The translations under genes and the position numbers were made by a program. A model generated the notes under the pieces. The model saw only the letters and a program-made list of their open reading frames with translations, searched no databases and was not told the origin of the DNA. A stretch of DNA of 18,447 nucleotides from a virus (lineage: Duplodnaviria > Heunggongvirae > Uroviricota > Caudoviricetes), in IMG/VR virus record IMGVR_UViG_2698536506_000007, one strand, 5' to 3'. Positions 17,701-18,447 of this stretch are shown here, piece by piece. Position 1 is the first letter of the stretch. Every line of letters begins with the position of its first letter.

Positions 17701-18447
17701 ATGAATGAAGCTTGTTCTGTTGTTTTTGTTCATTCCCCGTTTGTTGTGCTCTTTGAAGGAAAAGAGCTCTCTCTGGAAAGTGGTAGTGCACTTCTTGTCA
17801 GGGGGGGGGGAGCTGGATCGTTATTGCCCTTTTCGGAATGTTTTCGGCGAATAAGTCTCAGTGAATCGACAATTATCCGTTACCTGTTGTGTGGAGACGA
17901 AAAACAGGATGTAGTTTTAGTCCGGCAAATACCACGATATCTTTGCGTGAGTTTTCCCAAGGCAGAATTGATGGGCATCCTGATTGATTATCTTTGTGAG
18001 GAAAAGATTCATACGGACAATTTAGCGGAAATGCTTTCCTTTTCGTGTCTGGCGTTTTTCTCATCAGAGAAAATGTTTTCGTCGTTTCTGACCGCGTGTA
18101 TTGGCAATATTAGTGACAGGCTTAGTGCATTGTTTCGTACGGACATTGCAGCAAACTGGACTCTGAGAGATGTGTCTTCGCGGTTATGTATCAGTGAAAG
18201 TTTGTTAAAAAAAAGACTGAAAGAAGAAGGCACCTGTTTCAGTGAGTTGTTGCTTACAGAGAGAATGAGAATGGCAGCAATGCTGTTGACTCAATCTCGT
18301 TGCGCCATCAACAGAATCGCTGCTCAGTGTGGCTATAATTTTACATCTTATTTTATCAGCGTATTCAGGAGTTATTTTGGTGTTACACCGGCAGGTTACA
18401 GGATGGCTGCATTCAATGAGATGAGTTTAAGTGTTACTCAAGAATAA
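17701..18447 (+). CDS. AraC-family transcriptional regulator, AppY-like (248 aa)
   Basis: C-terminal AraC-type HTH (...RIAAQCGYNFTSYFISVFRSYFGVTPAGY); N-terminus CSVVFV... and C-terminal region parallel E. coli AppY as recalled; ORF-track ORF 17527-18447 trimmed to the ATG at 17701. Confidence 0.75.
   Translation: MNEACSVVFVHSPFVVLFEGKELSLESGSALLVRGGGAGSLLPFSECFRRISLSESTIIRYLLCGDEKQDVVLVRQIPRYLCVSFPKAELMGILIDYLCEEKIHTDNLAEMLSFSCLAFFSSEKMFSSFLTACIGNISDRLSALFRTDIAANWTLRDVSSRLCISESLLKKRLKEEGTCFSELLLTERMRMAAMLLTQSRCAINRIAAQCGYNFTSYFISVFRSYFGVTPAGYRMAAFNEMSLSVTQE
17801..17810. repeat. G10 homopolymeric tract inside the AppY-like coding sequence
   Basis: gtcaGGGGGGGGGGagctgg, encoding RGGGAGS. 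Confidence 0.9.

Follow-up and report, generated by a model that had tools for sequence, protein, structure and literature searches.

Homopolymers near the 5' end of coding sequences are known sites of recurrent frameshifting in bacteria. In the A7 run of inlA in Listeria monocytogenes, in glpK of Mycobacterium tuberculosis, in the tracts of Bordetella pertussis and in the poly-G tracts of Neisseria, the gain or loss of one unit truncates the product, and tract lengths have changed repeatedly in nature (PMC2831843). For these loci the switching rate or the reversibility has been measured. In Escherichia coli, the rate of insertions and deletions (indels) rises exponentially with homopolymer length, and G:C runs of 8 bp are already outliers in strain K-12 (PMC8510543). 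AraC-like regulators carried by prophages have also been described, among them AppY, PatE and PsrA/B (PMC10057817, PMC10877973). The present analysis concerns a run of ten G residues (G10) in a regulator gene of this prophage-borne kind. The gene ends a stretch of 18,447 nucleotides, here called the window (IMG/VR record IMGVR_UViG_2698536506_000007), which matches the chromosome of the bovine E. coli strain C5 (NZ_CP010122.1) at 100% identity. The run is best explained, with a probability of roughly 0.75, as an authentic and heritable allele, still in frame, of a glycine-coding stretch that is prone to slippage; the regulator gene to which it belongs is carried by the prophage as a moron.

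The locus resembles the frameshift loci named above in the 5'-proximal position of its run within the coding sequence, in the truncation that follows a change of ±1, and in its recurrent natural length changes. Unlike them, it is known from sequences alone. Its host is a mismatch-repair-proficient E. coli, its majority allele is just G7, and G10 does not represent an OFF state but an expansion that keeps the frame. The run is assigned to the known class of slippage-prone coding homopolymers, of which it is a new member. With AppY, PatE and PsrA/B the regulator shares the subgroup and the prophage lifestyle; the identity is 30-39% as measured on AppY and YdeO and on ECs_0287 of E. coli Sakai. 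The glycine run is absent at the equivalent position of the aligned YdeO, AppY and ECs_0287.

Ten consecutive G residues were read directly in the window at positions 17801-17810 of the plus strand. Together with A17800 and A17811 they form the codons of R34-G35-G36-G37 (AGG GGG GGG GGA), that is, the common G7 run plus one GGG codon. The reading frame that contains them is intact (ON) and encodes 248 amino acids (17701-18447, plus strand), with the in-frame ATG at 17701, not 17702, as its start and the TAA at 18445-18447 as its stop. The original prediction had placed the run inside a coding sequence and upstream of the DNA-binding domain, and had stated that a change of one G would shift the frame of the regulator. 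These claims hold, as codons 34-37 precede a helix-turn-helix (HTH) domain at residues 159-234 and a one-unit change cuts the main frame at 50-54 residues. Such a run is rare in this DNA. The window contains no second G or C run of at least 6, and the count of G10 or C10 runs expected in it under a model of independent and identically distributed bases is 0.026. In 606 kb of related prophage DNA just five G or C runs of at least 8 were found beyond the tract, and none reached 10.

A run of this length raises the question of its authenticity. A homopolymer miscall in the C5 genome might be considered, as the window's record is a single complete assembly, long-read platforms are generally known to be error-prone at homopolymers, and the same submitter's sister assemblies C3 and C7 unexpectedly lack 2 bp of this gene. 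Such an artefact is nevertheless extremely unlikely. The exact 248-residue protein is on record for about ten contigs under several independent NCBI accessions. Six loci that were fetched, five in NCBI drafts (contigs of 7-35 kb) and one in a Logan assembly, carry G10 in a gene that is 100% identical to that of the window, and an IMG contig (L012) adds a further copy. The drafts are GCA_024448105.1, GCA_013067685.1, GCA_002548375.1, GCA_012380335.1 and GCA_018018555.1, and the Logan assembly is that of SRR13998230. Nine G10 copies were read altogether, all exactly G10 and 100% identical over the gene; they include the RefSeq record that corresponds to the window itself, and L012 may derive from that strain too. 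These copies occur in three flanking contexts: the window's own, a backbone 95% identical upstream (L064, L067), and an unrelated backbone with a Q gene of the PF06530 type and an ORF6N gene (L065, L066, L068, L069). A frame-preserving miscall of +3 in every one of these assemblies is implausible. The assembly or sequencing error that the original prediction had kept in view is thus refuted by the presence of G10 in independent assemblies and in three flanking contexts.

The recent insertion that it had named as another possibility is supported. G7 is the common allele, and in one contig (L031) the gene has the same haplotype as in the window, down to a private Asn>Thr single-nucleotide polymorphism, but with G7 in place of G10. 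Because this copy is identical except for its tract and G7 is common, G10 represents G7 plus GGG, an in-frame gain of one glycine that leaves the gene ON. No derivative of G10 with one G more or less was found; the single contig with G9-AG (L077) belongs to a different haplotype. The exact stubs expected from G11 (54 residues) and G12 (51 residues), and the 49-residue product of the +1 frame of G10, were absent from a collection of 15 billion proteins.

The distribution of tract lengths was taken from assembled sequences, namely complete genomes, drafts, Logan and IMG assemblies, and viral and metagenome contigs. Two samples were untargeted with respect to length: the 60 complete-genome matches listed, and 53 viral and metagenome contigs obtained with a gapped pattern that allowed any 3-18 bases between exact flanks, giving 113 copies in combination. 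Among the complete-genome matches listed, 58 of 60 were exactly 3 bases shorter than the window, C5 alone had the full length, and C41 alone was 5 bases shorter. The sequences read among the 58 shorter matches were G7, in-frame G9 or an interrupted G4AG3-4. The 53 contigs comprised 49 with G7-AG, three with G9 and one with G10-AG, the last of these being L012, whose 8.3 kb of overlap with the window show 99.99% identity and which may come from the same strain as C5 or from a sibling. A frameshift was present in one of the 113 copies (C41, G5), corresponding to one of the 60 complete-genome matches listed and none of the 53 contigs, and about 99% of the copies were in frame. No sizeable OFF share, as would characterize a contingency locus, exists in these samples.

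The common allele reads AGG GGG GGA. An uninterrupted in-frame G9 was found in C3, C7 and a few contigs, where a synonymous GGA>GGG change extends the run, and diverged alleles read GGGGAGGG(G), which interrupts it. Tract length therefore varies among related genomes, from G5 to G10; a fixed length would have spoken against the original prediction. A history consistent with these alleles can be proposed. The gene travels in a cassette lodged between Q and the lysis genes in lambdoid prophages, for the most part those of ruminant-associated E. coli. The interrupted GGGGAGGG(G) would be the state of the diverged alleles, and the uninterrupted G7 would have arisen in a clade of 98-100% identity. 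A few alleles would then have been lengthened to G9 by substitution, and the window's allele would have gained GGG by slippage. Replication slippage from G7 would repeatedly have produced the G6, G8, G5 and G9 frameshift alleles, in which the main frame is cut after about 50 residues. The G10 allele itself would have been inherited unchanged and moved between prophage backbones by recombination.

Evidence for slippage came from a targeted search, in which OFF alleles were sought by their predicted products in the large protein collection. Frameshift products were found both as C-terminal fragments of 158 residues (P0006, P0034, P0037) and as N-terminal stubs of 49-53 residues, and the contigs behind them carried G5, G6, G8 and one G9-AG. 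By the rest of the gene, 27 haplotypes could be told apart, and copies with variant tract lengths share their haplotype with G7 copies; in one case, six G7, three G6 and one G8 copies have the same haplotype. A minimum of about 11 independent changes of tract length (to G5, G6, G8, G9 and G10) is needed among these close relatives, some of which may be long-read assembly errors, against two indels in the other 740 bp of the gene, a CG deletion at 18179-18180 and an A8>A7 change. The run is the dominant indel site of the gene and a slippage hotspot. Stubs were counted in the protein collection in about 19 contigs for G6, about 7 for G8, about 6 for G5 and one for G9-AG, and this order (-1 > +1 > -2 > +2) is the one expected for slippage from G7. 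For the 158-residue product P0034, seven loci were listed; the disruption lies at the tract in five of them, and it stems from an insertion sequence (IS) element in one and from another change in one. Since the indel rate is exponential in run length, G10 should mutate more than G7, by analogy with the runs of K-12.

The OFF alleles are young, because they are otherwise identical to intact alleles. Some are widespread: the G6 allele of one locus (L070) is repeated in 17 similar places, and the sharing of OFF alleles by many isolates points to their stable inheritance.

Other lesions of the gene were observed as well. An A8 run at 18207-18214 (plus strand), within the codons for LKKRLK, is shifted in several variants (P0009, P0010, P0062-P0066) and is A7 in L081; the variation reflects either slippage, weaker than at the G run, or read errors. 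In some Logan contigs a second homopolymer frameshift occurs at this A8 run, which suggests a read error there. The 2-bp deletion at 18179-18180 (tcgcgg > tcgg) is present in C3, C7 and one IMG contig (L004, L005, L033), where it splits the gene into two annotated reading frames on an in-frame G9 allele. In the complete genome CP169397.1 (L071, positions 143-1356), the insertion of an IS3-family transposase replaces the 5' part of the regulator gene, an independent route to inactivation.

The predicted products depend on tract length in a simple manner. With G7, G10 or G13, translation from the ATG at 17701 yields 247, 248 or 249 residues. With G6, G9 or G12, a stub of 49-51 residues results, and the sole long open reading frame (ORF) left runs from Met91 to the end (17971-18447, plus strand), encoding 158 residues that are essentially the DNA-binding domain; this is the sole long product annotated in frameshifted alleles of that phase. 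With G5, G8 or G11, the stub has 52-54 residues, and a second ATG at 17705 in the +1 frame enters the main frame after the tract, giving a hybrid of 245-247 residues with a new N-terminus of 33 residues. One unit therefore suffices to switch the reading frame in either direction from G10, the stubs being 50 residues for G9 and 54 for G11. The +1-frame ATG overlaps the main start (ATGAATG at 17701-17707), and at G10 its frame (17705-17854, plus strand) encodes a stub of 49 residues. Hybrids with the +1-frame N-terminus have been predicted by gene callers (P0009, P0062-P0064). Selected dual coding by the +1 frame was considered and judged likely to be chance, as it spans 32 codons and its ATG follows from the conserved M-N-E coding (ATGAATGA).

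A separate observation concerns the 3' edge of the run. An in-frame TTG at 17824 lies 12-14 nucleotides past the GGAG that closes the run (17808-17826), and one protein record (P0010, MPFSEC...) has been called from it. The run could thus act as an internal Shine-Dalgarno-like element that gives an N-terminally shortened product at any tract length.

The length variation and its consequences resemble what is expected of a phase-variable switch, which the original prediction had proposed. In that case the run would be a true contingency locus, selected for high-frequency and reversible ON/OFF switching within clones, and G10 would be an ON state reached through the OFF intermediates G8 or G9. 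A gain or loss of one G truncates the protein before its DNA-binding domain, natural lengths of 5, 6, 7, 8, 9 and 10 occur on several haplotypes, and a net change of +3 is most easily reached stepwise through OFF intermediates. The OFF alleles carry no secondary damage, and hence are purged or revert. Switching tracts are preferentially located towards the 5' end of a gene (PMC2831843), as this run is, and the length of the run should favour change, given the exponential dependence of indel rates (PMC8510543). The population data point the other way. In the untargeted samples just one of 113 copies is out of frame, none of the nine G10 copies departs from that length, the collection of 15 billion proteins has no G11 or G12 product, and the lone G9-AG stands on another haplotype. 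The same OFF allele recurs in many isolates (G6 of L070 and 17 similar places), as stable inheritance would predict. E. coli is generally known to be proficient in mismatch repair, which suppresses slips of ±1. There is no sign of selection for a long run, since the majority allele does not exceed G7 and the diverged ones have an interrupted run. A selected switch is unlikely on this evidence. What stands of the original proposal is its precondition, a slippage hotspot with G5, G6, G8 and G9 frameshift alleles on several haplotypes; the switching itself is unlikely, with about 99% of untargeted copies in frame, nine of nine G10 copies unchanged and OFF alleles shared among isolates.

A bolder version can be formulated, in which a contingency locus, evolving in an E. 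coli proficient in mismatch repair, would toggle the YdeO/PatE-like regulator of the prophage and thereby acid-resistance or colonisation programmes in ruminant-associated strains. G10 would then be an ON state recovered via further slippage and not by precise reversion, and the frameshifted states would yield proteins of altered activity, either the hybrid from ATG 17705 or DNA-binding-domain-only forms from Met91 or TTG 17824. This scenario must be regarded as improbable.

A third possibility is that the run acts at the level of expression. RNA polymerase slippage, or ribosomal frameshifting at the Shine-Dalgarno-like stretch of rare codons AGG-GGG, would produce a mixture of full-length, truncated and hybrid proteins, as in MxiE of Shigella. 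MxiE is likewise an AraC-family protein, and its gene too has overlapping frames around a long homopolymer towards the 5' end. In the 2005 work of Penno et al., the mxiE homopolymer is reportedly a run of nine T. At the DNA level mxiE is out of frame. MxiE depends on transcriptional slippage at the homopolymer, which affects about 30% of the transcripts (PMC6237886). In the regulator gene, two of the three frames are open from the overlapping ATGs to the run. The AGGGGG motif also resembles the Shine-Dalgarno-like element of the prfB frameshift site. The main ORF is, however, already in frame at both G7 and G10, so that no recoding is needed. Known bacterial transcriptional slippage sites are generally held to be A/T runs, and rG:dC hybrids to slip poorly. 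The open +1 frame, with the 32 codons mentioned above, is likely there by chance. Recoding at the run is very unlikely. As a candidate for programmed transcriptional slippage of the MxiE type, the gene was rejected on the grounds that its DNA is in frame at G7 and G10 and that its run consists of G.

Several points weigh against the preferred reading of G10 as a heritable in-frame allele of a slippage-prone run. Some OFF alleles, namely the G5 alleles of C41, L062, L072 and L074, are located in contigs of megabase size that probably derive from long reads; because the under-calling of homopolymers is a known error in such data, part of the hotspot signal could be technical. The counts of OFF alleles are biased upward, because these alleles were found by searching for their products. 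A lone slip of +3 is less common than slips of ±1, and an origin of G10 through OFF intermediates, if it took place, may favour a switch. A mixture of G9, G10 and G11 within a culture is not visible in assemblies. Finally, the function ascribed to the protein and its tolerance of the extra glycine are deduced from relatives and from a structural prediction.

The regulator itself can be assigned with some precision. Both AraC-type HTH profiles exceed their gathering scores over residues 159-234 (18175-18402, plus strand, 3' of the run): HTH_18 with 53.1 bits (cutoff 33.6; 4e-14) and HTH_AraC with 49.3 bits (cutoff 26.6). By these profiles, the 248-residue protein qualifies as a transcription factor of the AraC/XylS family, and profile and pairwise comparisons place it in the YdeO/PatE/AppY-like subgroup. 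Like YdeO, AppY, GadX and the regulators PatE, PsrA and PsrB of EHEC prophages (Z0321, Z1789 and Z2104), it belongs to the proteins of about 245-250 residues with an N-terminal beta-rich domain and a C-terminal double HTH. The best curated model is that of YdeO (NCBIfam NF007407), with 149.6 bits against an equivalog cutoff of 348. The identity is 37% to K-12 YdeO, 39% to Sakai ECs_0287 and 30% to AppY (b0564) over 233 residues. ECs_0287, the AraC-like gene of prophage Sp1 (OI-8), was taken as PatE by position alone. An orthologue of YdeO was ruled out by the model score, leaving a YdeO-like paralogue, and an orthologue of AppY by an identity below those to YdeO and ECs_0287. The label of AppY-like AraC regulator in the original prediction was therefore right as to the family and just loosely so as to AppY. 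By analogy with its relatives, which activate acid-resistance and related regulons, the regulator may act on targets of the acid-resistance type. Searches by accession returned no literature on this gene or on strain C5, and no deposited phage genome carries the regulator gene at more than 41% identity.

An AlphaFold model of the protein has a mean predicted local distance difference test score (pLDDT) of 81, and 79 for residues 31-40. In the N-terminal regulatory domain of the model, residues 35-37 form a coil that links strand E29-34 to helix H38-47, and the alignment of homologues is at its most variable around this loop. Because the glycines fall in a predicted loop and in the most variable stretch of the alignment, the extra glycine is likely to be tolerated and the protein would still work. 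The gene is under purifying selection, as shown by a ratio of non-synonymous to synonymous substitution rates (dN/dS) of 0.17-0.40 between alleles. The DNA-binding domain of the model matches PDB 3mkl at a template modelling (TM) score of 0.90, and structures of AraC-type domains in general at 0.8-0.9. In full-length comparisons the model comes closest to Rns, CsvR and ToxT (Foldseek E 1e-12 to 1e-9), which share the N-terminal domain of beta-sandwich plus helices that holds the glycine loop. They differ from the regulator in sequence (18-22% identity) and give a TM score of about 0.40, since the domain orientations differ; a fatty-acid pocket is not established for the regulator.

The gene is situated in a lambdoid prophage with the order RusA, antiterminator Q, a PemK/MazF-like ORF, the regulator and holin. 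Q (Pfam PF06323; 16072-16767, plus strand) was identified by profile search and marks the late-region position of the cassette, between Q and holin. At the left edge lies a GC-rich hairpin (17558-17572) followed by a T run, resembling an intrinsic terminator (17558-17582, plus strand), as indicated by folding and by homology across backbones. Homology to other prophage backbones begins exactly at 17558, and elsewhere the same gene follows unrelated Q modules. Because of these two features, the regulator is best described as a moron cassette consisting of the terminator hairpin, a leader of 130 nucleotides and the coding sequence, inserted between Q and the lysis genes. The position between Q and holin, the occurrence in unrelated backbones and the boundary hairpin at the left edge are all those of a lambdoid moron. 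The same location, a terminator-like hairpin on the flank and the sharing of one cassette among unrelated Q modules are known from lambdoid moron cassettes such as those at the stx position of Stx phages. The cargo is different, being a transcription factor here and a toxin in the Stx phages. In the 130-nucleotide leader no convincing (strong) sigma-70 promoter was detected. Among 5,426 complete genomes of E. coli, 65 possess the regulator gene, and most of these stem from cattle, sheep, buffalo or farms; a 91%-identical allele occurs in porcine enterotoxigenic E. coli.

Other features of the neighbourhood deserve mention. The PemK/MazF-like toxin ORF (Pfam PF02452, 8e-14) lies at 16960-17361, between Q and the regulator cassette, without an obvious adjacent antitoxin gene, and is present in just some of the prophage backbones with the regulator. 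Directly downstream of the regulator, just beyond the end of the window, the holin gene of strain C5 is cut by ISEc12, an IS21-like element (L001, 3925-6651). Because this element truncates the holin, the lysis module of the C5 prophage is broken and the prophage probably defective.

Between the PemK-like gene and the regulator cassette, the region 17397-17582 contains a sigma-70-like promoter (TTGACA-17-GATACT, 10 of 12 matches) that overlaps the palindrome ACACACATAGTGTGT. It is followed by two intrinsic-terminator-like hairpins at 17515-17537 and 17558-17572, of which just the last is common to other prophages. The 153 nucleotides of 17430-17582 have a folding energy of -58.4 kcal/mol (z = -4.6). 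By these features the region is a candidate small RNA. An Rfam scan of the whole window, this stretch included, returned no family.

For annotation, the locus calls for some caution. In frameshifted strains the gene is split, or shortened to a 158-residue 'AraC family regulator', and long-read assemblies may miscall the run. As it stands, the gene is a clean natural example of a glycine-coding run that has become the dominant mutational target of its gene. It shows recurrent young frameshifts, one in-frame expansion spread between prophages, and lengthening both by substitution (G9) and by slippage (G10). If the run were a true switch, the regulator would be one of the rare transcription factors of E. 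coli that vary in phase through a repeat, and it would be carried by a prophage. Phage cargo would then be linked to heritable heterogeneity in the stress and colonisation regulons of cattle-associated strains.

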